Source of the DNA: Nostoc sp. B(2019)
GTDB lineage: Bacteria > Cyanobacteriota > Cyanobacteriia > Cyanobacteriales > Nostocaceae
NCBI GenBank assembly: GCA_010091925.1
Contig: WVID01000006.1
Reading direction: 5' to 3' (one strand)
DNA: 64,000 bases
Part shown: positions 6,508 to 62,091 of the stretch, in pieces
Layout: each line of letters begins with the position of its first letter
Numbering within the stretch: position 1 is the stretch's first letter
Position numbers and translations under genes: made by a program
Notes under the pieces: model-generated
Database searches by the model: none
What the model was told of the DNA's origin: nothing
The model's input: only the letters and a program-made list of their open reading frames with translations

Positions 6508-6887
6508 GTCATCCTGAAATAATTCTCACCAAACTGCTGCTCAATCCTCAGCACTTTTTGATCCGTATATTAATAATTATAAAATTTTATGAAGATAATG
6601 ATCGACTGCGTTTGGGTATATGCAACAATCTGAAGATATTATTAACAAAAAGTTTTTTCAGTAACTTTGCGCTAACCTGCAAATGTATTTTCGCCTTCAA
6701 ATAGCAGGATTTGTTAAGCTGACTCCTTTTAGCTTTCCTAGATTTCTGATAAGAAGTAGAGAAAGATCCAACTTTTAATGAGCAACGGCTGACAATTCTT
6801 TGCTTCAGGCGCTAAGGAGCATTTTCTACAAGCATAATTACATGTGAGCGCCTAGAAGAGTCAGTAATACCAGACAGGGACTCTCGC

Positions 6888-8750
6888 ATGACCATAAATC
6901 CAGCTGAATCAACTATAGAGTTGACACAACAATCATCACCTCAGATTCTTTTCGGCACAGAAGTAGCTGATCGGGATCAACTACTAGAAGCGATCGCCAC
7001 GCGGATTCACCAATCTGTAGAATTAGAGACAATTCTCCATCAGACAACAAAGGAAGTCAGGCAATTTCTAGAAAGCGATCGCGTACTAATTTATCGCCTA
7101 GAGTCTGATGGCAGTGGAGTAATTATTGCAGAATCAACGGTAGTTGCCACTGGTTCACTGTTGGGAAAAAACATTACTGATCCCTGCTTGATTGGCAAAT
7201 ATCGAGAACACTATAACCGGGGTTGCATTCAAGTCGTCGAGGATATCTATGCAGCCGGACTGCATCCTTGCCAAATAGACTTACTCGCCTCTTTACAGGT
7301 AAGAGCTAATCTGGTTGTGCCAATTTTCTTAGGGCAAAATGTCTGGGGGCTATTCATTGCTCAGCATTGTCGTGAAACACATCAATGGCAGCAAACAGAA
7401 ATTGACCTACTTAAGCAGCTAGCAACCCAAATTGGCATTGCTGTTCATCAGGCAGAACTTCATCAGCAAATTAAGGATTTCAAAGCACAGTTGGAGTTGC
7501 ACAAGCAGAAGCACATAGCTCAGTTGCAACAGGTGCAAAACTTTGAAGCCTTAGTGCGACGCATGACAGAACAAATCCGCGACAGTCTAGATGAAAGTCT
7601 GGTGTTGCACACAGTGACTCAGGAATTGGTGCAGTTACTAAACCTTGACCGTTGCCAAGTTGAACTCTACGACACTTGCCACACGCTGGTAACTGTTGCC
7701 TACGAATACACCACTACTCTACCTCAGTGCCAGGGATCAACTCGACAGATTGCAGACTCGCCTGAAGTCTATCAACCACTATTGCAAAAACAACCCTTGC
7801 AATTTTTGGAAATTATTCCCGGATGGCAACCAAAGCTAGTTGTGAGCGCACAGATGGCTTGCCCAATCTTCGATACTCAAGGGATTTTAGGGAATATTTG
7901 GCTGACAAGAGCAACACAAGAGGCGTTTGAGGAATTTGAAATTGGGTTAGTGCAACAGGTAGCAAATGAATGCGCGATCGCTATTCGCCAAGCCCAGCTT
8001 TACGAGAAAAATCAGGCCCAGGTGAGAGAATTAGAAAAACGCGATCGCCTCAAAAACGAATTTCTCAGAACCTTGTCCCAAGAACTACGAACACCAATAA
8101 CTAGCATCAGTCTCGCAGCCCAAACTCTCGAAAGTGTCCTCACACCTGAAGAAATCTCAGATATAGAGATAATTCCCCAACTCTTGCAAATTTTGCATAA
8201 CGAGTGCGGACGAGAAAGCAAGTTAATTAACGATCTGCTCACGCTCACATATCTAGAAGCCGAACCCGAACCCCCAACTTTGATAGCCATTGACTTACAA
8301 AGTTGGCTTCACCCCATTGTCGAATCATTTCGCGATCTGACAATCTGCCAGCGACAGCATTTAAACCTGACTGTTGAAACTGCACTCCCGCCTTTAGAGA
8401 CAGATATTACCGACTTAGAGCGAATTGTCAGCGAATTGTTAAACCATGCTTGCAAATACACCCCAGCAGAAGAATCAATCACGGTGTCTGCTTACCAGAC
8501 AGGGGAAACAGTAGAGCTTAGTATCAGTAATTCTGGAATAGAGATTACCACCGATGAACTTTCGCGTATTTTCGAGCCGTTCTATCACCTTTCTAAAAAT
8601 GATCCCTGGAAATATAGTGGTACTGGACTAGAACTAGCATTAGTGCAGAAAATGGTCAGACATTTAGGCGGCGCAATTGATGTAGAGAGTACAGCCGGTC
8701 AAACTACCTTCACTGTTAAATTCCCCAGAGCAATTTCACCTTCTATTTGA
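6888..8750 (+). CDS. GAF-domain sensor histidine kinase
   Basis: 620 aa. Two GAF-like regions are followed by a HisKA motif and a HATPase_c C-terminus (GTGLELALVQKMVRHLGG). Confidence 0.8.
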   Translation: MTINPAESTIELTQQSSPQILFGTEVADRDQLLEAIATRIHQSVELETILHQTTKEVRQFLESDRVLIYRLESDGSGVIIAESTVVATGSLLGKNITDPCLIGKYREHYNRGCIQVVEDIYAAGLHPCQIDLLASLQVRANLVVPIFLGQNVWGLFIAQHCRETHQWQQTEIDLLKQLATQIGIAVHQAELHQQIKDFKAQLELHKQKHIAQLQQVQNFEALVRRMTEQIRDSLDESLVLHTVTQELVQLLNLDRCQVELYDTCHTLVTVAYEYTTTLPQCQGSTRQIADSPEVYQPLLQKQPLQFLEIIPGWQPKLVVSAQMACPIFDTQGILGNIWLTRATQEAFEEFEIGLVQQVANECAIAIRQAQLYEKNQAQVRELEKRDRLKNEFLRTLSQELRTPITSISLAAQTLESVLTPEEISDIEIIPQLLQILHNECGRESKLINDLLTLTYLEAEPEPPTLIAIDLQSWLHPIVESFRDLTICQRQHLNLTVETALPPLETDITDLERIVSELLNHACKYTPAEESITVSAYQTGETVELSISNSGIEITTDELSRIFEPFYHLSKNDPWKYSGTGLELALVQKMVRHLGGAIDVESTAGQTTFTVKFPRAISPSI

Positions 8751-17556: not shown

Positions 17557-18236
17557 ATTTCCACAAACCTGGATTTTGACCAACAACGTTACGCTTTATT
17601 AACTCATTTAGCAGAAGTCCCACATCTCAATTTTAGGAGTGTGGGTACGCCAGTCGCCTGCGACGGGAAACCCGTCTACAGCGCTGGCTTATGAATGCGC
17701 GTGAGTTGACGACAGTTCTCCTATACTAATTGCTAATTACACAGTCTCAACTTAGAGACTGAATTATAAAAATTTGCCAAAACAGGGAAATCACAGAAGC
17801 TCTACAAATCTATGCTCCTTGTTGAAGCTTTAAAGCCTCTTTCCTTAAAGGCCAAAGTATATTGCATACAAACTAAAACCGCCATAATTCCACAGCGAAA
17901 AGACAACCAGTGGGTGGGATAGAAGTTTTTGTAGCATTTATGCAAGGCCTAAGTTTTAACTTTTAGCAAGTCCACATAAATGGCACCTGGTTGCGTAAGT
18001 AAAGTTTATGACAAAAGTACTCCTTGCCAGTGTGTGATCAAGGTGCTTTAATAGCGATCGCATTGCGCCATAATGTCCTGCATGTATAAGACGTACAAGA
18101 TGCACAGCGACTTGTCATCAGACATCGCTACTAGTGTTCATAAAATCACAGACTCAAAACATTAGACTGAAAGGTAAGACAAGGTAGTACCATGTCCTTT
18201 ACACTAAATTCTCCCAAAAGCTGAACAGGAGCATAT

Positions 18237-26003: not shown

Positions 26004-26527
26004 AAGTAATTACTCGGTGATATATACGGATGAAGCGGGTTAACTGACACCAGTTTCCTCTAACTATCTTTATTTTAGAGATATTCAGAGGATTTGGAAA
26101 TGTAATTTGTACAGAGGTTATAAAATTTTTTCTAATTACTAATTATTTATATCTGTAAAAGGCGTTGAAAATATATTTAAGTACAATCACGTATGTATAG
26201 CTGAGCGATAAATGGCATTGTTTTTAGAATCTAGCTATTAGTATAAATGAATATAAGAGTTAGATAAAAATGATTGATAACCTAGCTAATAATTAGAAGA
26301 CAAAGATAAAATTAAAAATTTAGTTATTCTCAGATTTTAATGATATCTGCGCTCATAGCAATAGACTGAAGTATAGCTGTAATAAAAAAGCTTTACTGGC
26401 AATTTTGTATCCGATATCTTTAAGTGATTGAAAGTCTTTTCAACAGTAACTACACGTTTTTGGAAACAATAGTTTCATTGATAACTTAACAATAGGCGGT
26501 ACAAAGTCTGTTCCTTAACCTGCTTCA

Positions 26528-26632
26528 ATGATAGGACTTCTAGCTTTTGGTGCTTTCGGCGTTGCTTCACTCCACAAGCGTAAACAGCAACACAATACCA
26601 TAAGGCATACATTATATACCATTGTATTTTGA
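26528..26632 (+). pseudogene. orphan, decayed PEP-CTERM tail fragment
   Basis: It translates as MIGLLAFGAFGVASLHKRKQQ..., with a stop codon 3 codons upstream. It parallels the C-terminus of the 27120..28166 protein (MLGVLAIGAFGMGSLHKRNQQ). Confidence 0.45.
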
Positions 26633-27119: not shown

Positions 27120-28166
27120 ATGATCAGATTTCAAATCAGTAAAAATTTTCAAAATGCTTGTAAAAAAAGTCTAAAAACATTTGCAGTTTTAAGTATTAGC
27201 GCACCCTTAAGTCTAGGATTAATTACTAGTGCCAATGCGGCATCAATTATTAGTAACGGTACTATTCAGTTAGGAATAAATGATGAAGGTCATCTCAATG
27301 TATCTGGTGGTACACCATCTTTGGGAGGAGTTACCGACGTTGGTTTGAGATTTCTGCCAACTGGTGCTGAAGCAACTGCTCCAGGCTGCCTTTGTGAGGG
27401 TTGGGGTGTAGCAGATGCGATTACAGGACTGACAGGTTACGCCAACGTCTCTACAGATGGGGTTCAAAATCTAAGTCTGATCTCTTTCATTGCCGATGCT
27501 ACTAAAGCTACTTCTATCGTTCAACTTGGCGATAGTCTTAAAATAACTCATGACTATGCACCAGTAGCCGTAACGCCCTATGTGTATAAAGCCGCAGTTA
27601 CTATAGAAAACATTGGCACAGCCGCTATTGGAGATCTGCGCTATCGCCGTGTCATGGATTGGGATATCGAACCAACACCTTTTAGTGAGTTTGTGACGAT
27701 TAAAACAAGCGGTGCTAGCAATGTGCTGTTTACCAGTGATAATGGTTTTGCCTCGGCAAATCCTTTGAGTCTACCAACCAGCATCGACTTTACAGGAGAA
27801 GCTGTTGACTCTGGCCCCAGTGACCACGGTGCTTTATTCGATTTCGGCTTCGGTTCGCTGGCTATTGGAGCCAGCCGCACGTTTAATATCTTTTACGGTG
27901 CGGCTCCAACTGAAACAGAAGCGTTGGCTGCACTGGTTGCTGCCGATGCTGACAGGGTATACTCTTTAGGGCAAACAAGTGTGCCAGATGGGCCAAGTAC
28001 CGGAATGCCCAATACCTTTATCTTTGCCTTTTCAGGAGTTGGTGAACCTCCTAGCAAGTCTGTTCCCGAATCTGGTTCTATGTTGGGTGTGTTAGCAATA
28101 GGTGCTTTCGGTATGGGTTCACTCCACAAGCGTAATCAGCAACAGAAAGCCGCAGCTAAAGTCTAA
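27120..28166 (+). CDS. PEP-CTERM sorting-domain secreted protein
   Basis: A signal peptide is present. The C-terminus reads VPESGSMLGVLAIGAFGMGSLHKRNQQQKAAAKV, which contains a PEP motif, a TM segment and a basic tail. The ORF opens at 27060. The start is taken at MIRFQ. Confidence 0.75.
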   Translation: MIRFQISKNFQNACKKSLKTFAVLSISAPLSLGLITSANAASIISNGTIQLGINDEGHLNVSGGTPSLGGVTDVGLRFLPTGAEATAPGCLCEGWGVADAITGLTGYANVSTDGVQNLSLISFIADATKATSIVQLGDSLKITHDYAPVAVTPYVYKAAVTIENIGTAAIGDLRYRRVMDWDIEPTPFSEFVTIKTSGASNVLFTSDNGFASANPLSLPTSIDFTGEAVDSGPSDHGALFDFGFGSLAIGASRTFNIFYGAAPTETEALAALVAADADRVYSLGQTSVPDGPSTGMPNTFIFAFSGVGEPPSKSVPESGSMLGVLAIGAFGMGSLHKRNQQQKAAAKV

Positions 28167-30048: not shown

Positions 30049-30104
30049 AAATTAGTCAATAGTCCAGAGTCAATAGTCAATAGTCCAAAGCTAATTGACT
30101 GTTG

Positions 30105-30335
30105 GCCCTTTACCCTTGAACGCCAGTTCACTCAACAACGGCGGGAACCTCCCGTAAAGCCCTTCTCCCAAAGGGAGACGCCAAAGGCGAACGGGCATGG
30201 CTTCGCTTACCGCGCAGCGTCTTTGCTAGGAAAAGTTCAGATGCCTAGGTTGGGCTGCGCCAACGCCGGTTCGCCTTTGGCGTTCCCGCAGGGTAGCCGG
30301 CGCTCCGACTTCTCTGTGCACGTGACTGGCTCCCC
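30105..30335. repeat. GC-rich, highly structured small-dispersed-repeat cluster between atpD and atpC
   Basis: The arms CGCCAAAGGCGAAC and GTTCGCCTTTGGCG are inverted. The module CGTTGGCGCAGCCC is shared with 47024..47040 in the opposite orientation. Heptamers flank the cluster. Confidence 0.6.
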
Positions 30336-30373
30336 TTAACCCTTGACTGTTGACCTTTGACCCTTGACAACTT

Positions 30374-47105: not shown

Positions 47106-48098
47106 GTGCAAAACTTAGGGATAGCAATTACCGGAAGTGGCTCAGCAGTACCAGCAACTTCCTTAGACAATCAAAGCTTGTCTAAATTAGTTGAGACATC
47201 AGACGAGTGGGTAACAACAAGAACGGGAATTCGTCAACGGCGATTAGCGCAGCCATCTGAGTCATTAAGTGTACTCGCCACTGCGGCTAGTCGCCAGGCG
47301 ATCGCATCTGCTGGAATCGCTGCATCTGACTTAGATTTAATTTTGCTGGCGACATCCACTTCTGACGACTTGTTTGGTACTGCTTGTCAAGTACAAGCTG
47401 AATTGGGAGCCACCAAAGCAGTAGCCTTTGACTTGACGGCAGCCTGCTCCGGCTTTGTTTTTGGGCTAGTAACAGCCGCCCAATATATCAAAACAGGCGT
47501 TTTTCAAAATGTACTATTGATAGGGGCGGATATCCTCTCTCGCTGGGTAGATTGGCAAGATAGGGGTACCTGTGTATTGTTTGGTGATGGTGCAGGAGCA
47601 GTAGTATTGCAAGCATCCAAAAGCGATCGCCTATTAGGATTTGCACTCAAAAGCGATGGTACTCAAAATCATCACCTTAATCTTTCATATACAGCCTCTT
47701 CTCAAGAACTGCTCCCAGGCATAAATGTCACTAAAGGCACTTACCAACCCATAACCATGAACGGCAAAGAAGTCTACCGCTTCGCCGTCCAAAAAGTGCC
47801 AGAAATCATCGACAAAGCCTTGTTTCAAGCTAACCTGAATGTTGACCAAATAGATTGGTTAGTATTGCATCAAGCCAATCAGCGGATTCTCGATGCTGTT
47901 GCCCAACGCTTAAATATTCCACAACATAAAGTTATTAGTAATCTTGCTCAGTACGGCAATACCTCCGCCGCTTCCATCCCCCTAGCCCTAGATGAAGCAG
48001 TACGGCAAGACAAAATAAAACCCAATGACATCATTGCTACATCCGGCTTTGGTGCCGGTCTTACTTGGGGCGCGGCAATTTTTCAATGGGGAAGATAA
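47106..48098 (+). CDS. fabH: 3-oxoacyl-ACP synthase III
   Basis: The active-site region AACSGF, and the downstream His and Asn motifs, are present. Confidence 0.9.
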   Translation: MQNLGIAITGSGSAVPATSLDNQSLSKLVETSDEWVTTRTGIRQRRLAQPSESLSVLATAASRQAIASAGIAASDLDLILLATSTSDDLFGTACQVQAELGATKAVAFDLTAACSGFVFGLVTAAQYIKTGVFQNVLLIGADILSRWVDWQDRGTCVLFGDGAGAVVLQASKSDRLLGFALKSDGTQNHHLNLSYTASSQELLPGINVTKGTYQPITMNGKEVYRFAVQKVPEIIDKALFQANLNVDQIDWLVLHQANQRILDAVAQRLNIPQHKVISNLAQYGNTSAASIPLALDEAVRQDKIKPNDIIATSGFGAGLTWGAAIFQWGR

Positions 48099-48165
48099 AT
48101 ATTCAGTCAAGAGTCAAAAGTCAAAAGTAATAAATAACCCTTGACCCTTGACCCTTGACTCTTTA

Positions 48166-48265
48166 ACGCCACTTGCTTTAAGCCCTTCGGGTTCGCAGTC
48201 CCCTACGGAGGGAAACCCTCCTTCAGGGCTGTCTCACCGGGAAACCCTAGTAGAGCAGTGGCTCC
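48166..48265. repeat. approximately 100-nt GC-rich structured dispersed repeat (copy 1), flanked by inverted heptamer arrays
   Basis: A 79-nt stretch is identical to 52959..53037. It includes the internal hairpins GGAGGG-AAA-CCCTCC and CGGG-AAA-CCCG. Confidence 0.85.
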
Positions 48266-48295
48266 TCTTGATCCTTGACTCTTGACTCTTGACTA

Positions 48296-49177
48296 ATGAC
48301 TAAAACTGCATGGGTATTTCCCGGACAAGGTTCTCAAGTACTGGGAATGGGAATGGACTTATTAGATATACCCTCCGCCAAAGACAAATTTGTCCAAGCT
48401 GAGGCTATTCTGGGCTGGTCTGTAACAGAAATCTGTCAAAAAGACGAAGAAAAATTATCACAGACGTTATATACACAGCCAATTCTTTATGTAGTAGAAA
48501 GCATTCTCGCTGATCTTATCCGGGAACGGGGACATCAGCCAGATTTAGTTGCTGGTCACAGTTTGGGCGAATACGTTGCCCTTTACGTTGCTGGTGTCTT
48601 TGAATGGTCGGCGGGGTTACATTTAGTCAAACGTCGTGCGGAACTTATGGATAGTGCCGCAGGTGGAATGATGGCGGCTCTATTAAACTTTGACCGCGAA
48701 CAGTTGGAAAAAGTCATTGCCGAAACGCCCGATGTAGTGCTAGCTAATGACAACAGTCCGGCTCAAGTTGTAATCTCTGGAACTCCAGACGCCGTACAAG
48801 CAGTGATTTCTCAAGTTAAAGCCAAGCGTGCTATTCCTCTAAAAGTTTCTGGAGCATTTCATTCACACTTAATAGCACCAGCGGCAGCGGAGTTCCAAGA
48901 CATTCTAGAATCTGTGGAATTTCAACCAGCGGTTGTGCCAGTGTTATCTAATGTAGAACCAGTTCCATCTATTGATGCCGAAATTTTAAAGCAGCGCTTA
49001 AACAAACAAATGACTGGTTCGGTACGGTGGCGAGAAATTTCTCTACAATTACCAGCAAAAGGCATCCAGCAAGTAATAGAAATTGGCCCCGGTAACGTAC
49101 TAACTGGTTTAATTAAACGTATTAGCCCTGATTTAATCTTAAAGAACGTCCGTAATGCCACTGAATTACCGAACTAG
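48296..49177 (+). CDS. fabD: malonyl-CoA:ACP transacylase
   Basis: GHSLGEY is present. Confidence 0.9.
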   Translation: MTKTAWVFPGQGSQVLGMGMDLLDIPSAKDKFVQAEAILGWSVTEICQKDEEKLSQTLYTQPILYVVESILADLIRERGHQPDLVAGHSLGEYVALYVAGVFEWSAGLHLVKRRAELMDSAAGGMMAALLNFDREQLEKVIAETPDVVLANDNSPAQVVISGTPDAVQAVISQVKAKRAIPLKVSGAFHSHLIAPAAAEFQDILESVEFQPAVVPVLSNVEPVPSIDAEILKQRLNKQMTGSVRWREISLQLPAKGIQQVIEIGPGNVLTGLIKRISPDLILKNVRNATELPN

Positions 49178-49189
49178 GGATTGGAGACT

Positions 49190-49325
49190 GGGGACTCTTA
49201 ACAGGGGTAAAAGGTTAAAGGTTAAAGGTTAGAGGGATGATTTTTCCTTTTCCCCTTACCCCTTTCCCTTTCCCCAATGCCCAATGCCCAATGCCCAATC
49301 CCCGATACCCAGTCCCCAATTTCCT
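49190..49325. repeat. STRR arrays: AAAGGTT x3, the complementary CCTTTCC set, then CCCAATG/CCCCAAT x6
   Basis: The arrays were read directly. The ORF track's upstream start at 49284 would translate these repeats. Confidence 0.8.
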
Positions 49326-49964
49326 ATGTCTCAAAGCCGCGAACCGTTTATTAGTCTGGCACTTTACCACGCCTTTAAATGGTCGGTCGTCAGCCCCATG
49401 CTTCATGCTTACTTTCGGGGCCAGATTTATGGTGTGGAAAATGTCCCTAAATCAGGGCCACTGGTGGTAGTGAGTAATCATGCTAGTTACTTTGATCCAC
49501 CTATTGTCTCTAATTGTGTATGTCGTCCAGTGGCGTATATGGCTAAGGAAGAGTTATTCGATATCCCAATTTTGGCAAAAATGATTAAATTATACGGTGC
49601 TTACCCGGTGAGTAGGGGAAGTGCCGATCGCACTGCTATCCGTTCTGCCCTAGAATATCTCAACAAAGGTTGGGCTGTCGGGGTTTTTTTGCAAGGCACT
49701 CGTACTCCAGATGGTCGAATTACAGATCCCAAGAGAGGTGCAGCACTGCTGGCGGCCAAGGCAAAAGCACCGATATTACCAGTAAGTTTGTGGGGTACTG
49801 AGGGGATTTTAGAAAAAGGCTCAAAGCTACCTCGTGCAGTTCCCATCACTGTAAGGATTGGCAAATTAATTGATACTCCTAGTTCTACTAATAAAGAAGA
49901 ATTAGAAGCCATAACACAAAAATGTACCACAGTGATCAATGAGATGCATGATTTAGGCCGATGA
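49326..49964 (+). CDS. plsC: 1-acyl-sn-glycerol-3-phosphate acyltransferase
   Basis: The NHxxxxD motif (VVSNHASYFDPPI) is present. The start is taken at MSQSREPF so that the STRR repeats are not translated. Confidence 0.8.
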   Translation: MSQSREPFISLALYHAFKWSVVSPMLHAYFRGQIYGVENVPKSGPLVVVSNHASYFDPPIVSNCVCRPVAYMAKEELFDIPILAKMIKLYGAYPVSRGSADRTAIRSALEYLNKGWAVGVFLQGTRTPDGRITDPKRGAALLAAKAKAPILPVSLWGTEGILEKGSKLPRAVPITVRIGKLIDTPSSTNKEELEAITQKCTTVINEMHDLGR

Positions 49965-50119
49965 GTTAAATCATACTGGGGAATATGCTTTAGGGAAGTG
50001 GCGATCGCCACTCAGTTTCTATATGTTTAAAGTTAATGCGCCATAGCAAATCAAGTAAGACTTTGTGCTTAAATGCAACAGCTAGGCTAAATCACCAATA
50101 CCTTTTCTCTAGATAGTAT

Positions 50120-51157
50120 ATGAGCGGCTTTGAAGCCAAAAACTTTTGGGATCGATTGAATAATCTGGCGTTAGTCCGCTTTTTACTTTTAGTGGCTTCT
50201 GGCTGGGCAATTGTGCAGCTTTTAGCTTACTTTGAGATAGTCATAGTTATTTTTACATTCGCTGCAATTTTGGCTTTTTTGCTCAGCTATCCTGTACAAT
50301 GGCTGCGGCGTTTTTTGCCCCACGGCATAGCAGTTGTTGTAGTTTTCTTGCTTAGTGTTGTGATTCTTGGCGGTATAGCTGTTACCGTTGGATTAACGAT
50401 ATTATCTCAAGGACAACAATTAATTGACAGCATAACTGGGTTTTTGAATTCTTTAGTACCTCTATTAGAGCGATTAGAAGTATTTCTACGAAGCCGTAAT
50501 CTTCAAATAGATTTGAGTGTAATTGAAGGACAATTACGGGATCAAGCTGTAACAACTCTTGTAACTAGCTTGGCAATTTTACAAAGTTTTATGACTAACT
50601 TTGTAACTTTTATATTGGTTGCAGTTGTAGCTTTTTTCATGCTCCTAGATGGAGACAAGCTCTGGAGCTTTATCTTAAAAGTAGTACCAAAGCAGCGCCG
50701 TAATCGATTTACAAATATAATCAGACGCTCATTTCTAGGATTTTTTAGAGGTCAGTTGTTATTAAGCCTATTTCTCGCAACTTCGACTTTTCTAGTGTTC
50801 GTATTATTAAAAGTACCTTTTGCCTTGATATTGTCAGTGATAGTTGGAATCGTTGATATCATTCCTGGCATAGGAGCAACATTAGGAATTGGTACAATTA
50901 CTCTAGTTGTGTTGTCTCAAGGTGTTTGGTTAGCATTGAAAGTATTGGCAGCTTGTATTGTTCTTCAGCAGATACAAGATAACTTAATTGCGCCCCGCAT
51001 TATGCAAGGTGCGCTCAATCTTAATCCTGTAGTCGTGTTCTTCGCTTTACTTGTAGGTGCTAAAGTAGCAGGTCTATTAGGTGTTTTTATATCTATTCCG
51101 ATCGCTGGAGTAATTGTGTCTTTGTTTGAAATTGATGAGATGAAAGCAGAAGTGTAG
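50120..51157 (+). CDS. AI-2E family (PerM/YhhT-like) transporter
   Basis: 345 aa with about 8 TM segments and an AI-2E-like topology. Confidence 0.75.
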   Translation: MSGFEAKNFWDRLNNLALVRFLLLVASGWAIVQLLAYFEIVIVIFTFAAILAFLLSYPVQWLRRFLPHGIAVVVVFLLSVVILGGIAVTVGLTILSQGQQLIDSITGFLNSLVPLLERLEVFLRSRNLQIDLSVIEGQLRDQAVTTLVTSLAILQSFMTNFVTFILVAVVAFFMLLDGDKLWSFILKVVPKQRRNRFTNIIRRSFLGFFRGQLLLSLFLATSTFLVFVLLKVPFALILSVIVGIVDIIPGIGATLGIGTITLVVLSQGVWLALKVLAACIVLQQIQDNLIAPRIMQGALNLNPVVVFFALLVGAKVAGLLGVFISIPIAGVIVSLFEIDEMKAEV

Positions 51158-51286
51158 TCAATATAATTCATAATTCATAATTGATAATTCATAATTAAAA
51201 TCAGTGTGAGCTTCTGTACAGTGTCTTTAATTAGGAATTAGTTAAATAAACTACTGAGTAGTGAATAATATAAACGTTTGGGAGTT

Positions 51287-51583
51287 ATGTCGGATTTAAG
51301 AGCGGAATTAACAGAAATACTAGATGAGGCAGAATGGGAGTGGCTGATTCCTCATGTGCAGCGAGATGCAGTAATTTTAGTGGCACTTAAGCTAAATTTG
51401 GTGGATGTTGGGGAAGCGATCGCCAGCGATAACATTCCCTCAGTACAGCAGTGGATTGATGAGCAATTGATTACTAAACCATCACCAGTACAAGTAGGAG
51501 AATGGAATAGCGATCGCACCAAGCGATTTCATACCCTCATCGTCCAGCCCTACGTTCTGGTGCAAGAAATAGCTGCTGCGTAA
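51287..51583 (+). CDS. DUF2288-like small protein
   Basis: About 100 aa. It is a conserved small acidic cyanobacterial protein. The alternative start is 51278. Confidence 0.45.
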   Translation: MSDLRAELTEILDEAEWEWLIPHVQRDAVILVALKLNLVDVGEAIASDNIPSVQQWIDEQLITKPSPVQVGEWNSDRTKRFHTLIVQPYVLVQEIAAA

Positions 51584-51648
51584 GCTAAATTTAAGTGTCA
51601 CAGAACGGCTAGAATTGTTACCATAATTTCAGATTAGATGTTGAAACC

Positions 51649-54222
51649 TTGATCCAATCTGAAACCTTAGAACTACTAGAATGGCATCGCCTCTGCCAGC
51701 ACCTTTCCACGTTTGCGGCAACTAAGCTGGGGGCGACAGCTGCGCGTCATCTGAAAATACCTGATTCTCAGGCAGAAAGCGAACAGTTGTTAGAGCAAAC
51801 CAAAGAAGTCTACCAACTAGAAAGTCGTCTGACTACAGGACTGTCGTTTGAGGGAATTCAAGATATTGGTGATTCTTTAGAACGGGCAGAACGCAGCGGT
51901 ATTTTAACAGGGGATGAACTGTTAGCGATCGCTACCACCCTCGCTGGTGCTAGAAATTTGCGCCGTGTAATTGACAACCAAGAAGATTTGCCAATCTTGA
52001 CTAATTTGGTTGCCGATTTGCGAACTTATCCCGAACTAGAACAGGAAATTCACCGTTGTATAGATGAACGAGCACAGGTAACTGACCGCGCCAGCCAAAA
52101 GCTGGGAGAAATTCGCACAGACTTGCGGCGATTACGCACTCAAATTACCCAAAAACTGCAAAATATTTTACAGGCAAAAGCTGGGGCAGTTCAGGAACAG
52201 CTAATTACCCAACGGGGCGATCGCTATGTAATCCCTGTGAAAGCACCTCAAAAAGATGCCATCCCCGGCATTGTCCACGATACCTCTACCAGCGGTGCGA
52301 CGCTGTATGTAGAACCTAATTCTATCGTGCCTCTAGGCAACCAACTGCGGCAGATAATTAGAAAAGAGCAAGCAGAAGAAGAAGCGATTCGCCGTGTTTT
52401 AACGGAGCAAGTAGCAGCAGTCAAACCTGATTTGGAGAGGTTATTAGCAATTGCTACCACTTTGGATCTCGCAACCGCCAGATCACGATATAGTTTCTGG
52501 CTAGGAGCTAATCCCCCGCGATTTATCAACCGGGAGGAAAGTGAAATCATTACCTTACGGCATTTGCGTCATCCATTGTTAGTGTGGCAGCAACAGCACG
52601 AACAAGGGCAACCAGTAGTTCCTGTAGATTTGTTCATCAGTCCACAAATTCGGGTAGTAACGATTACCGGGCCAAATACTGGCGGTAAAACTGTTACCTT
52701 AAAAACTCTAGGGTTAGCAGCATTGATGGCCAAGGTAGGTTTATTTGTCCCCGCCCGCGAACCAGTCGAAATCCCTTGGTTTGACCAAGTGCTGGCAGAT
52801 ATTGGCGATGAACAATCCCTACAGCAGAGTTTATCCACATTCTCCGGTCACATCCGCCGCATCAGTCGGATTTTAGACGCACTGGGAACTGGGGAAGCAG
52901 AGGAGCAGGGGAGCGGAGGGGCAGAGGAGAAACTTGGTACTCAGCAACGCCAGTCCGACGCCACTTGCTTTAAGCCCTTCGGGTTCGCAGTCCCCTACGG
53001 AGGGAAACCCTCCTTCAGGGCTGTCTCACCGGGAAACCCGTCCAACGCAGTGGCTCCTCAAGTCGGGGAACCCGCCCACGCGGCTGGCTCCTCAGCACTC
53101 GTCTTACTCGATGAAGTTGGCGCAGGAACCGATCCAGTTGAAGGTAGTGCCTTAGCGATCGCTTTGCTGCAATATCTCGCTAACCACGCTCAGCTAACAA
53201 TCGCTACCACTCACTTTGGTGAACTAAAAGCGCTGAAATATGAAGATGAGCGGTTTGAAAATGCCTCGGTAGAATTTGACGAAAGTACTCTGTCGCCAAC
53301 TTACCGCCTGCTGTGGGGAATACCCGGACGTTCCAACGCCTTGACAATTGCTTTGCGTTTGGGGCTAAAACCAGAAGTTGTGGAACAGGCGAAATCCCAA
53401 GTGGGAGAAGCAACAGATGAAGTTAACCAAGTCATTGCTGGGTTAGAAGCGCAACGTCGTCGCCAGGAAACTAAGGCTACTGAAGCACAAAATGTGTTGC
53501 AACAAGCAGAACGTTTGTACAAAGAAGTATCCGAAAAAGCCACAGCTTTACAAGAGAGAGAAAGTGCATTGCGGGCTTCACAGGAAGTAGCTGTTCAACA
53601 AACGATCGCCCAAGCAAAAGGTGAAATTGCCCAAGTAATTCGCCGCTTGCAGCAAGGTACACCCACAGCCCAAGATGCCCAGCAAGCGACTAATGCCTTG
53701 AATCAAATTGCCCAGAAATATCAGCCAGCAACGCCACCAAAACCAAAACTTGGGTTTATGCCCAAAGTAGGCGATCGCCTCCGTATTCCCAAGTTGGGAC
53801 AAACAGCAGAAGTGTTAACCGCCCCCGATCATGATGGGGAGTTAACTGTGCGCTTTGGGATTATGAAGATGACAGTCAAACTAGAAGATGTAGAATCTCT
53901 AGATGGTCAAAAAGCCGAAGCAGTTGTCAAAGCAAAGCCAGCCCCAACAGTAGTTACACCACCATCGCAGCCAGCCCCAGCGATTCGCACTTCCCAAAAT
54001 ACCGTCGATTTACGTGGTAAGCGAGTGGCTGACGCCGAATTCATTCTCGACAAAGCCATTTCGGAAGCTACAGGGCCAGTATGGATTATTCACGGGTACG
54101 GTACTGGTAAGCTGCGGCAAGGTGTTCACACCTTTTTGCAACAGCATCCCAGAGTCAGCAACTATGAAGCAGCAGAACGAGCAGACGGTGGCAGTGGTGT
54201 CACTATTGCTCATATAAAATAA
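51649..54222 (+). CDS. mutS2: endonuclease MutS2 (MutS domains III-V plus C-terminal Smr) carrying an in-frame repeat insertion
   Basis: Walker A (GPNTGGKT) and Walker B (LVLLDEVGAGTDP) are present, and the C-terminal Smr domain reads VDLRGKRVADA...IHGYGTGKLRQGV. The start is TTG in the ORF track, so the exact start is uncertain. Confidence 0.85.
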   Translation: MIQSETLELLEWHRLCQHLSTFAATKLGATAARHLKIPDSQAESEQLLEQTKEVYQLESRLTTGLSFEGIQDIGDSLERAERSGILTGDELLAIATTLAGARNLRRVIDNQEDLPILTNLVADLRTYPELEQEIHRCIDERAQVTDRASQKLGEIRTDLRRLRTQITQKLQNILQAKAGAVQEQLITQRGDRYVIPVKAPQKDAIPGIVHDTSTSGATLYVEPNSIVPLGNQLRQIIRKEQAEEEAIRRVLTEQVAAVKPDLERLLAIATTLDLATARSRYSFWLGANPPRFINREESEIITLRHLRHPLLVWQQQHEQGQPVVPVDLFISPQIRVVTITGPNTGGKTVTLKTLGLAALMAKVGLFVPAREPVEIPWFDQVLADIGDEQSLQQSLSTFSGHIRRISRILDALGTGEAEEQGSGGAEEKLGTQQRQSDATCFKPFGFAVPYGGKPSFRAVSPGNPSNAVAPQVGEPAHAAGSSALVLLDEVGAGTDPVEGSALAIALLQYLANHAQLTIATTHFGELKALKYEDERFENASVEFDESTLSPTYRLLWGIPGRSNALTIALRLGLKPEVVEQAKSQVGEATDEVNQVIAGLEAQRRRQETKATEAQNVLQQAERLYKEVSEKATALQERESALRASQEVAVQQTIAQAKGEIAQVIRRLQQGTPTAQDAQQATNALNQIAQKYQPATPPKPKLGFMPKVGDRLRIPKLGQTAEVLTAPDHDGELTVRFGIMKMTVKLEDVESLDGQKAEAVVKAKPAPTVVTPPSQPAPAIRTSQNTVDLRGKRVADAEFILDKAISEATGPVWIIHGYGTGKLRQGVHTFLQQHPRVSNYEAAERADGGSGVTIAHIK
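52880..53100 (+). repeat. in-frame insertion (about 72 codons) of a GC-rich dispersed repeat (copy 2) inside mutS2
   Basis: The stretch 52959..53037 is identical to 48168..48246. It translates as a G/A/P/S-rich linker located between the RILDALGT segment and the Walker B motif. Confidence 0.8.
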
Positions 54223-54571
54223 GACGGCAATAAATGTAACTGGGCAGAGTTAATGATTGTTAATTGCTAATTACTAATTAGCTGATGGTGATTAGAGATT
54301 AGCAATTAGCAGTTATCAATTTTAGGTTTGTTTATTTATACTCTTGTACCTAGCTAGTAGCTAAAGTTAGGTAAACCTTAACTTGGGCTGATAATTTTCT
54401 ACTTTGATGAAAAGAAGTTTTCATTTAGAGTAAGACAAAGATAACTGCTGTTTACTACAGAGAAAAGCTAGTTGAAGCTTCTAGCTCATAGCTATAGGAA
54501 ACCAACTTTGATGCTTGAGAGTCTGGTTTCAAAATGGGTAACAGCAACAGTCCCTATCAGCCTGATCACCT

Positions 54572-60951: not shown

Positions 60952-61962
60952 TTGGCCATGAATACAGAAAAAGCGAACAAAACAATCCGTGTCGGTGTCC
61001 TGGGTTTCGGCGGACTAGGACAAGCAGCCGCTAAGCTACTTGCTGGCAAACGGGAAATGATTTTAGTCGCAGCAGCAGATCAAAAAGGCTACGCTTACGC
61101 TGCTGATGGTTTAAATACTCAAGAATGCATTGCAACTTACCAGTCTCAAGGTTCAGTGGGTTATTTAGAGCCAGTTGGTAATTTAACAAATCAAAGTATT
61201 CAGGATTTAATCGAAAGTACACAAGCTGTAGATGGCTATTTTCTAGCTTTACCCAACCTACCTAATGACTTTATACCTAATGTAGCTAAGCAGTTTATCA
61301 AATCCGGCTGGCGTGGAGTGTTAGTAGATGCGATTAAGCGCACTAGTGCTGTAGAACAACTACTAGCAATGAAAGAGGAAATGCAAGCAGCCGGAATTAC
61401 CTACATGACAGGATGTGGGGCCACACCTGGATTGTTAACAGCAGCAGCAGCAATAGCCGCTCAAAGCTACGCGGAGATTCATCAAGTTGAAATTACTTTT
61501 GGCGTGGGAATTGCCAACTGGGAAGCTTACCGCGCCACAATCCGCGAGGATATTGGACACATGCCTGGTTATACAGTAGAAACTGCTAGAGCTATGAATG
61601 ATGCAGAAGTAGAGGCATTATTAGATAAAACTAATGGCGTGTTGACCTTAGAGAATATGGAACACGCCGATGATGTGATGCTAGAAGTAGCGGGAATTTG
61701 CGATCGCGATCGCGTTACTGTTGGTGGTGTAGTCGATACTCGCAATCCCAAAAAACCACTCAGTACTAACGTTAAGGTAACAGGGCGCACTTTTGAAGGT
61801 AAGATTTCCACTCATACCTTTACTCTCGGAGATGAAACCAGTATGGCAGCCAATGTCTGCGGCCCTGCCTTTGGTTATCTCAAAGCTGGTAGACAATTGC
61901 ACCAGCGCGGCATCTATGGAATATTTACTGCTGCCGAAATTATGCCCCAGTTTGTTAGGTAA
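60952..61962 (+). CDS. NAD(P)-binding Rossmann-fold oxidoreductase, family not resolved
   Basis: An N-terminal GxGxxG motif ([11 protein letters not shown]) is present, together with a GCGATPG motif. Confidence 0.4.
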
Positions 61963-62091
61963 TAATTAGGAGTTAGGAGTTAGGAGTTAAAAGTTTGAAT
62001 TGAAAACTTAAACTTGTATGTAACTTCAGAATCTTTGGCTTTGCTGAAAATTTCCAACTCCTAACTCCTCACCGTTAACTCCTATCTTCTT

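Follow-up and report, generated by a model that had tools for sequence, protein, structure and literature searches.

The small dispersed repeats (SDRs) of Nostoc punctiforme and its relatives, reportedly described by Elhai et al. in 2008, are said to be tiny hairpin units that lie within tandem heptamers, nest within one another and carry compensatory changes. The element considered here, a nest of hairpin units denoted B[A[Y]], lies in frame within the mutS2 gene of Nostoc sp. B(2019) (Nostocaceae), on a stretch of 64,000 nucleotides of contig WVID01000006.1 (assembly GCA_010091925.1) that is referred to below as the window. In Nostocaceae, SDR5 inserts into HIP1 sites, according to PMC5861425. 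The Rickettsia palindromic elements (RPEs) are selfish palindromic repeats that occur in frame in protein-coding genes (Ogata et al., 2000, as related in PMC2229807 and PMC10969869), and an RPE-containing guanylate kinase has been shown to be translated and to retain its activity. [quoted passage not shown] The G-rich heptamer repeats studied in Nostoc, GGGGA(C/T)T, show under-representation within coding sequence (PMC4692102). As for the host gene, MutS2 of Bacillus subtilis is described in PMC10897456 as a factor that splits stalled ribosomes.

The mutS2 ORF of Nostoc sp. B(2019) (51649-54222, plus strand) runs uninterrupted for 857 amino acids (aa), and its product contains all three domains expected of a MutS2 protein, namely the MutS_V ATPase domain (Pfam E-value 3.5e-29), the KOW/SH3-like MSSS domain (2e-15) and the C-terminal Smr domain (1.6e-18). 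The MutS_V match is divided into two stretches, one on each side of the insert. The product aligns with B. subtilis MutS2 (PDB 7qv3; E = 7e-131) over the full length apart from the insert, with query residues 3-412 matching chain residues 2-406 and query residues 481-857 matching 408-785. The intervening query residues 413-480 (68 aa, encoded by 52885-53088) face a single residue of the B. subtilis protein and form a hypervariable connector without a counterpart there, which is located after the helix (..RILDAL) that follows the STFSGH signature motif and before the strand ALVLLDEVG. Within this strand, LVLLDEVGAGTD is taken here, from what is established for MutS/ABC-type ATPases, to be the Walker B motif. 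A preliminary description of this DNA had placed a small dispersed repeat between these two structural elements and had found that it leaves the 857-aa frame unbroken, and both statements hold. The evidence set out below makes it likely that the repeat represents a recent in-frame landing of B[A[Y]] in an older, hypervariable tandem-repeat cassette; the insert is read as DNA that is selfish or neutral, in a place that permits it, rather than as an adaptation.

The lineage-specific part of the connector is an insertion at 52947-53090 (plus strand), 144 nt in length (145 nt if an ambiguous C at 53091 is counted), which comprises 48 codons and has a G+C content of 65% compared to 48% for mutS2. 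Deletion of 52947-53090 restores ...EEKLGTQHSALVLLDEVG, which matches the ortholog sequence STQHSALVLLDEVG. The preliminary estimate of about 72 added codons was correct with respect to the frame but too high: the peptide it quoted has 68 aa (residues 415-482), and its first 20 or so codons (GTGEAEEQGSGGAEEKLGTQ) belong to the older cassette, which is present in orthologs as well. The predicted translation of the connector includes the stretches ...QQRQSDATCFKPFGFAVPYGGK... and QQRQSDATCFKPFGFAVPYGGKPSFR.

The insertion is built of related hairpin units, nested at three levels, of the family ACGCCAGT...GGGAAACCC...CTGGCTCC, the units of which begin with ACGCCA and end with TGGCTCC. The preliminary notion of a small dispersed repeat is borne out insofar as the family is dispersed and structured, and has to be amended insofar as the insert is a nest and not a single unit. 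The outer unit B consists of a 5' part, ACGCCAGTCCG (52947-52957, plus strand; comparable to an un-nested unit at 17647-17691 and to locus L116), and a 3' part, TCAAGTCGGGGAACCCGCCCACGCGGCTGGCTC (53058-53090, plus strand), which is homologous to the 3' end of the middle unit A (34-nt period, 1.9 copies). Unit A, ACGCCACTTGC...GCAGTGGCTCC (52958-53057, plus strand; 100 nt), has the terminal inverted repeat GCCACT(T)GC / GCAGTGGC and encloses the inner module Y, a hairpin of the form CCCTTCGGGTTCGCAGTC-CCCTACGGAGGGAAACCCTCC-TTCAGGGCTGTCTCACC (CCCTTCGGGTTCGCAGTCCCCTACGGAGGGAAACCCTCCTTCAGGGCTGTCTCACC; 52975-53030, plus strand) that is widespread in Nostocales. The inverted repeat of B is GCCAG / CTGGC, and the ends of both A and B pair in the predicted folds, which have energies of -59.7 kcal/mol for the complete insertion with its ends paired (z = -2.3) and -43.3 kcal/mol for unit A alone (z = -3.6). 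Read forward, the 144-nt block is open in two frames out of three; read in reverse, it has stops in every frame.

Unit A, with Y inside it, has a second copy in the window (48166-48265, plus strand), in the intergenic spacer between fabH and fabD. The two copies share an exact run of 82 nt (52958-53039 in mutS2 and 48166-48247 in the spacer, an offset of 4792); the preliminary description had recognized this identity but reported it as 79 nt (52959-53037 and 48168-48246), with ranges that were slightly too short and one base out of register. Similarity extends past the identical run, as also proposed there, to a direct repeat of 102 nt with 94% identity (48166-48267 versus 52958-53059 in a repeat search of the window), in which a 7-nt block differs (GTCCAAC versus TAGTAGA) and the subsequent GCAGTGGCTCCTC is again identical (53047-53059 and 48255-48267). 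A 45-nt probe taken from the repeat matches the window exactly at two places (48168-48212 and 52960-53004), and the number expected from 100 shuffles is zero. The spacer copy, flanked by TCTTTA and TCTTGA, is located in the 3' arm of a heptamer hairpin (48105-48301, plus strand) that consists of an AGTCAAR arm, a loop and a CCTTGAC arm (RNA fold z = -5.5). Simple homologous exchange with this copy, 4.8 kb upstream of the insertion, was considered as the source of the mutS2 insert and rejected because the flanks differ, with the halves of B on one side of the comparison and CCTTGAC heptamers on the other.

The orthologous fabH-fabD spacers of three relatives (L119, 2615-2735; L120, 2398-2658; L121, 2292-2423) do not contain unit A and carry other small inserts in the corresponding heptamer hairpin. 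The inserts include, in the Komarekiella spacer, an oppositely oriented hairpin unit that is related but not identical and, in that of Roholtiella, a GTACAGAAACGATTAATCGCGTCTATAC unit. The fabH-fabD spacer is a second hot spot for small inserts.

The insertion in mutS2 interrupts a tandem-repeat cassette that is itself laid out as a hairpin. The 5' arm (52892-52929, plus strand) is made of purine-rich repeats of about 8 nt, GGGAAGCA GAGGAGCA GGGGAGCG GAGGGGCA GAGGAG, translated as GEAEEQGSGGAEE, and is shared with orthologs such as P0041 (L125) and P0031 (L122). An AT-rich segment, AAACTTGGTA (52930-52939, plus strand), probably represents the loop, as judged from the corresponding loops of L120, L121 and L125. 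The 3' arm begins with a CTCAGCA heptamer (52940-52946, plus strand) directly 5' of the insertion and resumes behind it (53091-53103, plus strand) with a second CTCAGCA (53091-53097) followed by CTCGTC, which leads into the codons of the Walker B strand. This architecture of arm, loop and arm matches the intergenic heptamer hairpins of these genomes, for example the one in the fabH-fabD spacer. The heptamers that are used in MutS2 genes (CTCAGCA and GGGGACT) contain no stop in any of the three frames, and the spacer heptamer CCTTGAC includes TGA.

An alignment of 120 Nostoc-type MutS2 orthologs (798-853 aa) answers the question raised in the preliminary description, whether orthologs all carry the same segment. 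They do not carry the 144-nt part: the peptide ATCFKPFGFAVPYGGKPSFRAVSPGNPSNAVAP is absent from all 120, including the nearest relatives (Nostoc sp. MG11, aff. Roholtiella LEGE 12411 and Komarekiella), which are 96-98% identical outside the segment and have unrelated sequences within it. All 120 nevertheless possess a cassette of translated short tandem repeats at the site, and some extension at this position is ancestral to Nostocaceae. Between RILEALG and LVLLDEVG, both length and content vary in almost every lineage, even between proteins that are about 97% identical elsewhere. The segments resemble translated tandem repeats (GDWGLGTGDWGLGTG, GDEGDEGDEG, EEQGSRGAGEQGSRGA, STQHSALSTQHSAL, IPNPQSLIPNPQSL), sometimes broken by other peptides (STSLRDAARTTTLSD, ASYPILRQRSVQVPH). 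The earlier statement that orthologs have only a short connector at this point does not apply to these proteins: among 132 representatives of diverse MutS2 clusters, 114 have 14 aa from FSxH to the Walker B strand, a few other cyanobacterial clusters reach 53-81 aa, and the distance ranges from 22 to 77 aa (mode 25) in the Nostoc set, with the 81 aa found here being the longest. The designation of the protein as an essential-type ATPase likewise finds no support in the analysis.

At the DNA level, the orthologs that were read at the site share one layout, in which a tandem-repeat arm rich in purines is followed by a short AT-rich loop and then by a heptamer arm rich in pyrimidines. The 3' arm is (CTCATCA)5 in Komarekiella (L120), (CCCACTC)3 in Roholtiella (L121) and (ACTCAGC)n, read as STQHSAL, in P0041; in P0080 (L123), about 17 GGGGACT units are opposed to AATCCCC units. 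In P0031 and P0009 (L124), the arms of the cassette contain other small G+C-rich elements, e.g., ..TCTCTACGAGACGCTGCGCGAACGACTACGCTCAGTGAC.., which are independent insertions in other Nostoc lineages. The main addition to the preliminary description is this lineage-wide, repeat-built, hypervariable site in the ATPase domain of MutS2 that captures small elements.

The window contains four members of the repeat family. Apart from the mutS2 and spacer copies, these are an un-nested simple unit, ACGCCAGTCGCCTGCGACGGGAAACCCGTCTACAGCGCTGGCT (17647-17691, plus strand), in an intergenic region, and a nested composite of 214 nt, ACGCCAGTTCAC...GTGACTGGCTCC (30120-30333, plus strand), which holds further small units, e.g., TTCTCCCAAAGGGAGACGCC, and occupies the 3' arm of a heptamer hairpin between genes (30053-30370). 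In Roholtiella (L121), an un-nested relative, ACGCCACTTGCTTTAAGTCGGCAGAGCCGCCCAACGCAGTGGCTCC, is likewise located in the 3' arm of such an intergenic hairpin, and in L022 a composite and a CAAAATC heptamer are duplicated in tandem. Heptamer arrays surround the copies at 30120, 48166 and 52947 as well as the L121 and L022 copies, and the units embedded in heptamers are always found in the 3' arm and always in one orientation. A search with the insert peptide, the sensitivity of which is limited (it missed in-frame copies in queA and tnpB genes that were found through DNA), gave matches only in Nostoc sp. B(2019), in two ORFs that are small and probably spurious and that contain the peptide KPSFRAVSPGNPSNAVAPQVGEPAHAAGSS spanning the Y-A-B junctions; the composite itself is thus repeated. 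According to this peptide search, the full composite is in frame only in the present mutS2.

Module Y is far more widespread. Species-representative genomes contain its 21-mer core in at least 118 stretches, and among the matches listed most belong to Nostocales (Stigonema, Rhizonema, Brasilonema, Scytonema, Iningainema, Calothrix and Nostoc). Y occupies many different outer hairpins and is itself broken by further small units at many loci. Outside Nostocaceae, the core is also present in contigs of Leptolyngbya, Phormidesmis, Phormidium tenue and Pseudanabaenaceae, where it often lies inside transposase genes. The non-Nostocales cores (L016, L023, L026, L033, L107, L114 and others) are embedded in a constant context, TCTTAC(A/C)CAGTC...CAGGGCTGTGCGCT, and at least in L018, L039 and L069 the core with this context is inside the reading frame of an IS256-type transposase. 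These observations suggest a separate spread of the Y core outside Nostocales that is linked to insertion sequences.

Among 119 aligned copies of Y (76 distinct), five of the eight pairs of the outer stem show double-sided changes, e.g., CG in 39 copies versus UA in 24 for the column pair 12-40. The covariation score is 0.133, compared to 0.065 ± 0.006 for shuffled alignments (none of the 500 reached the score) and at most 0.078 for slid controls, which supports selection on the hairpin as judged from the aligned sequences.

Of the 120 Y-core matches listed, 31 are located in stop-free spans of at least 150 aa. Pfam domains flank Y on both sides, in frame, in QueA (L082, 3640-3690), in two TnpB proteins (L098, 740-790; L008, 405-455), in a Ser/Thr kinase-AAA_16 protein, where Y immediately precedes the P-loop (L110, approximately 6883-6933, minus strand), in an RRXRR-HNH protein (L054, 7521-7571) and in a DinB_2 and FGE-sulfatase protein (L067, 2925-2975); in the IS256-type transposase of L069, the Pfam match is only downstream of Y. 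These in-frame copies lie in other cyanobacterial genera. Y is read in two frames, ...FGFAVPYGGKPS... and ...SPTEGNPPSGL..., which fits with two of the forward frames being open and all reverse frames being stopped. By our own rough estimate, about one in nine random insertions would be tolerated on frame grounds alone. An adaptive explanation is not needed.

Among the described systems, the closest functional parallel is judged, by analogy, to be the RPE. Both the RPEs and the Nostoc element are palindromic, about 105-150 bp in size and open in frame, and both occur in frame in conserved enzymes as well as in unrelated genes and in intergenic regions; for module Y, in-frame copies were found in several unrelated conserved genes. 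The likeness is regarded as a functional analogy; the sequence family and the phylum are unrelated. Moreover, the Nostoc element differs from RPEs in being a nest of smaller units and in having landed in an existing tandem-repeat cassette instead of unique coding sequence. The element also resembles MITEs, with its 100-nt and 144-nt units, terminal inverted repeats, ends that pair into a stem-loop, the lack of coding capacity of its own and some in-frame copies. The modular self-nesting, however, is atypical of MITEs, and there is no clear target-site duplication at this locus, where the flanking heptamers mimic one. The GTAG/CGTC end tag of the RAYT-associated REP/REPIN elements is not found at the ACGCCA and TGGCTCC ends of these units, and some hairpins that host Y elsewhere begin with GTAGGGGCGAAC.

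Compared by description only, the units share with the SDRs, as these are said to be, a small size, dispersal, hairpin formation, location within heptamers, self-nesting and compensatory stem changes. The units described here measure about 45 nt and their composites 100-214 nt, and, unlike what is reported for SDRs, one of them lies inside a conserved coding region; furthermore, in contrast to the reported confinement of SDRs to Nostocaceae, the Y core is found also in Leptolyngbya and Phormidesmis contigs. The cassette itself is akin to the short tandemly repeated repetitive (STRR) heptamer sequences of heterocystous cyanobacteria in that 7-nt arrays form inverted arms around a loop, with GGGGACT arrays in several orthologs. 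[quoted passage not shown]

The course of events that we consider likely would be as follows. The connector of MutS2 in Nostocaceae contains an old, in-frame cassette of 7-9-nt tandem repeats, laid out like the intergenic STRR-type heptamer hairpins, which would evolve by slippage and by capture of small elements and would become hypervariable as a result. A recent event would have placed the 144/145-nt B[A[Y]] between two CTCAGCA units in the 3' arm, with the orientation and frame that are free of stops, and its translation would most likely add 48 residues, rich in Gly, Ala, Pro and Ser, to a loop that already accommodates 8-63 additional residues in relatives. The element may target tandem-repeat hairpins and its own copies, and the mutS2 site is the one place in the gene that resembles its usual intergenic target and accepts additional residues. 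Four features, namely the pairing of the ends, covariation in the stems, the absence of a clear target duplication and a preference for hairpin contexts, tentatively point to mobility through a structured single-stranded intermediate (RNA or single-stranded DNA) that would be directed to hairpins or tandem repeats and would require no target-site duplication. The insertion would be selfish or neutral.

Several points weigh against this scenario. The CTCAGCA present on both sides of the insertion, which is also the local tandem-repeat unit and occurs in several copies in orthologs, could be a 7-bp target duplication and not a pair of pre-existing heptamers, and the placement of 1 nt at the 3' junction (GGCTC|C|TCAGCA) is ambiguous. 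The covariation in Y may partly stem from subfamily descent, the copies being related. In a BLASTN search against plasmids, only Y was detected, on 16 plasmids of Nostoc, Trichormus, Calothrix, Scytonema, Brasilonema and Aulosira, and the whole composite on none of them; the A-specific junction was not found in two scans of the Joint Genome Institute (JGI) metagenomes. Given that the composite was found neither in these metagenomes nor on plasmids, its copy number and mobility are weakly documented. No transposase partner was found, no search aimed at one having been made. The insert is presumed to be translated and this MutS2 may be active, and the putative exposure of the loop at the protein surface is suggested by the alignment to the solved MutS2 structure and by the tolerance seen in orthologs; an AlphaFold2 model of the full-length protein, for which 41 close orthologs were used, was too poor for this purpose (mean pLDDT 42.7, pTM 0.22).

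The alternatives differ in whether the segment is functional, ancestral, removed or artefactual. It is unlikely, although compatible with several features of the locus, that the repeat cassette, and possibly the insertion too, is functional, either as a contingency locus that operates by slippage or as a structured mRNA segment that modulates the translation of MutS2. Every Nostoc ortholog has long in-frame arrays whose unit length is not divisible by 3 (at most about 17 GGGGACT, in P0080), the arm-loop-arm layout is conserved across lineages, and mutS2 is the only long ORF in the window with such arrays deep inside, all of which is in line with such a function; in the contingency version, 7-nt or 8-nt units would shift the frame and switch mutS2 on and off, and slippage would restore the frame after insertions. 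However, all 120 retrieved orthologs are in frame, the cassette has no conserved length or sequence, as fits neutral drift at a permissive loop, and the insertion is unique to this genome. The only broken allele that was fetched (L126), in which mutS2 is called as several short adjacent genes, is found on an ENA (European Nucleotide Archive) contig, ctg301367_3x_l, the name of which marks "3x"; it is read as an assembly error and as such is unusable as evidence of a natural frameshift. The stronger form of this proposal, namely that the cassette is a maintained landing pad as well as a slippage-prone contingency locus that turns MutS2, a ribosome-rescue and anti-recombination factor, off and on and rapidly restores the frame after insertions, is unlikely; if true, it would explain why this one site gathers hairpin elements of arbitrary length. 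Less weight is given to a mis-assembly through repeats, or to an inactivated and decaying mutS2 copy. Repeats of this kind do break or confuse assemblies, and several MutS2 fragments in the databases, e.g., P0132, stop within the cassette, most of the truncated fragments being on short contigs; in Nostoc sp. B(2019), by contrast, both junctions are continuous with ortholog-like sequence, the frame is kept, the ATPase, MSSS and Smr motifs are all intact, and the synteny around mutS2 is preserved in relatives.

That the segment is missing from the mature protein, through removal of an intron or intein or through translational bypass, is highly improbable. The strong closed hairpin could in principle support bypassing, but Y is read through in frame in unrelated genes and in two frames, and the element is intergenic as well. 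At 144 nt, the insertion is, to our knowledge, shorter than any known self-splicing intron. In a search of 47500-54500 against Rfam at E <= 1, the sole match was a sub-threshold miRNA model outside the region, and no family, including introns, was detected; a group I or group II intron or another described RNA was rejected on these grounds, as was an intein, given that Pfam yielded only MutS_V, Smr and MSSS, with no intein/Hint domain, and that the insert is just 48 aa long. An ancestral MutS2 linker that was lost in the other lineages is scarcely credible: the antiquity of some extension at the site speaks for it, but the 144-nt part is missing from every ortholog in the set, the close relatives included, and this part is 82-nt identical to an intergenic copy, deviates in G+C content from its host gene and is composed of dispersed repeat units. 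This explanation was rejected on the absence from orthologs.

The window contains other repeats as well. Heptamer arrays at 49206-49320 (GGTTAAA, 4.3 copies; CCCAATG, 6.9 copies) extend into the 5' end of an ORF for a PlsC-like acyltransferase (49284-49964), the first predicted residues of which, MPNAQSPIPSPQFPM, are translated heptamers; the products in relatives have 212-240 aa, and the true start is therefore probably downstream or variable. Inverted TTAGGAG / AACTCCT arrays at 61957-62087, with 40-nt arms that are 73% complementary, form another heptamer hairpin, and a 92-nt direct repeat with 78% identity is found at 26504-26595 and 28056-28147, 1.55 kb apart.

Taken as a recent landing of B[A[Y]] in an older cassette, the mutS2 insertion would provide a clean and datable cyanobacterial case of a small non-coding repeat becoming protein sequence within a conserved NTPase, a process best documented for the RPEs of Rickettsia. 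The element would have entered by way of an in-frame tandem-repeat cassette that was already in place and that elements of this kind prefer as a target. The MutS2 site amounts to a natural experiment in insertion tolerance, in which the stretch separating the signature helix from Walker B varies from 14 to 81 residues, and this range may be of use for protein engineering and for the question of how repeats create disordered loops. For the annotation of genomes, G+C-rich, repeat-derived segments in the proteins of Nostocales should not be taken for domains, introns or errors.

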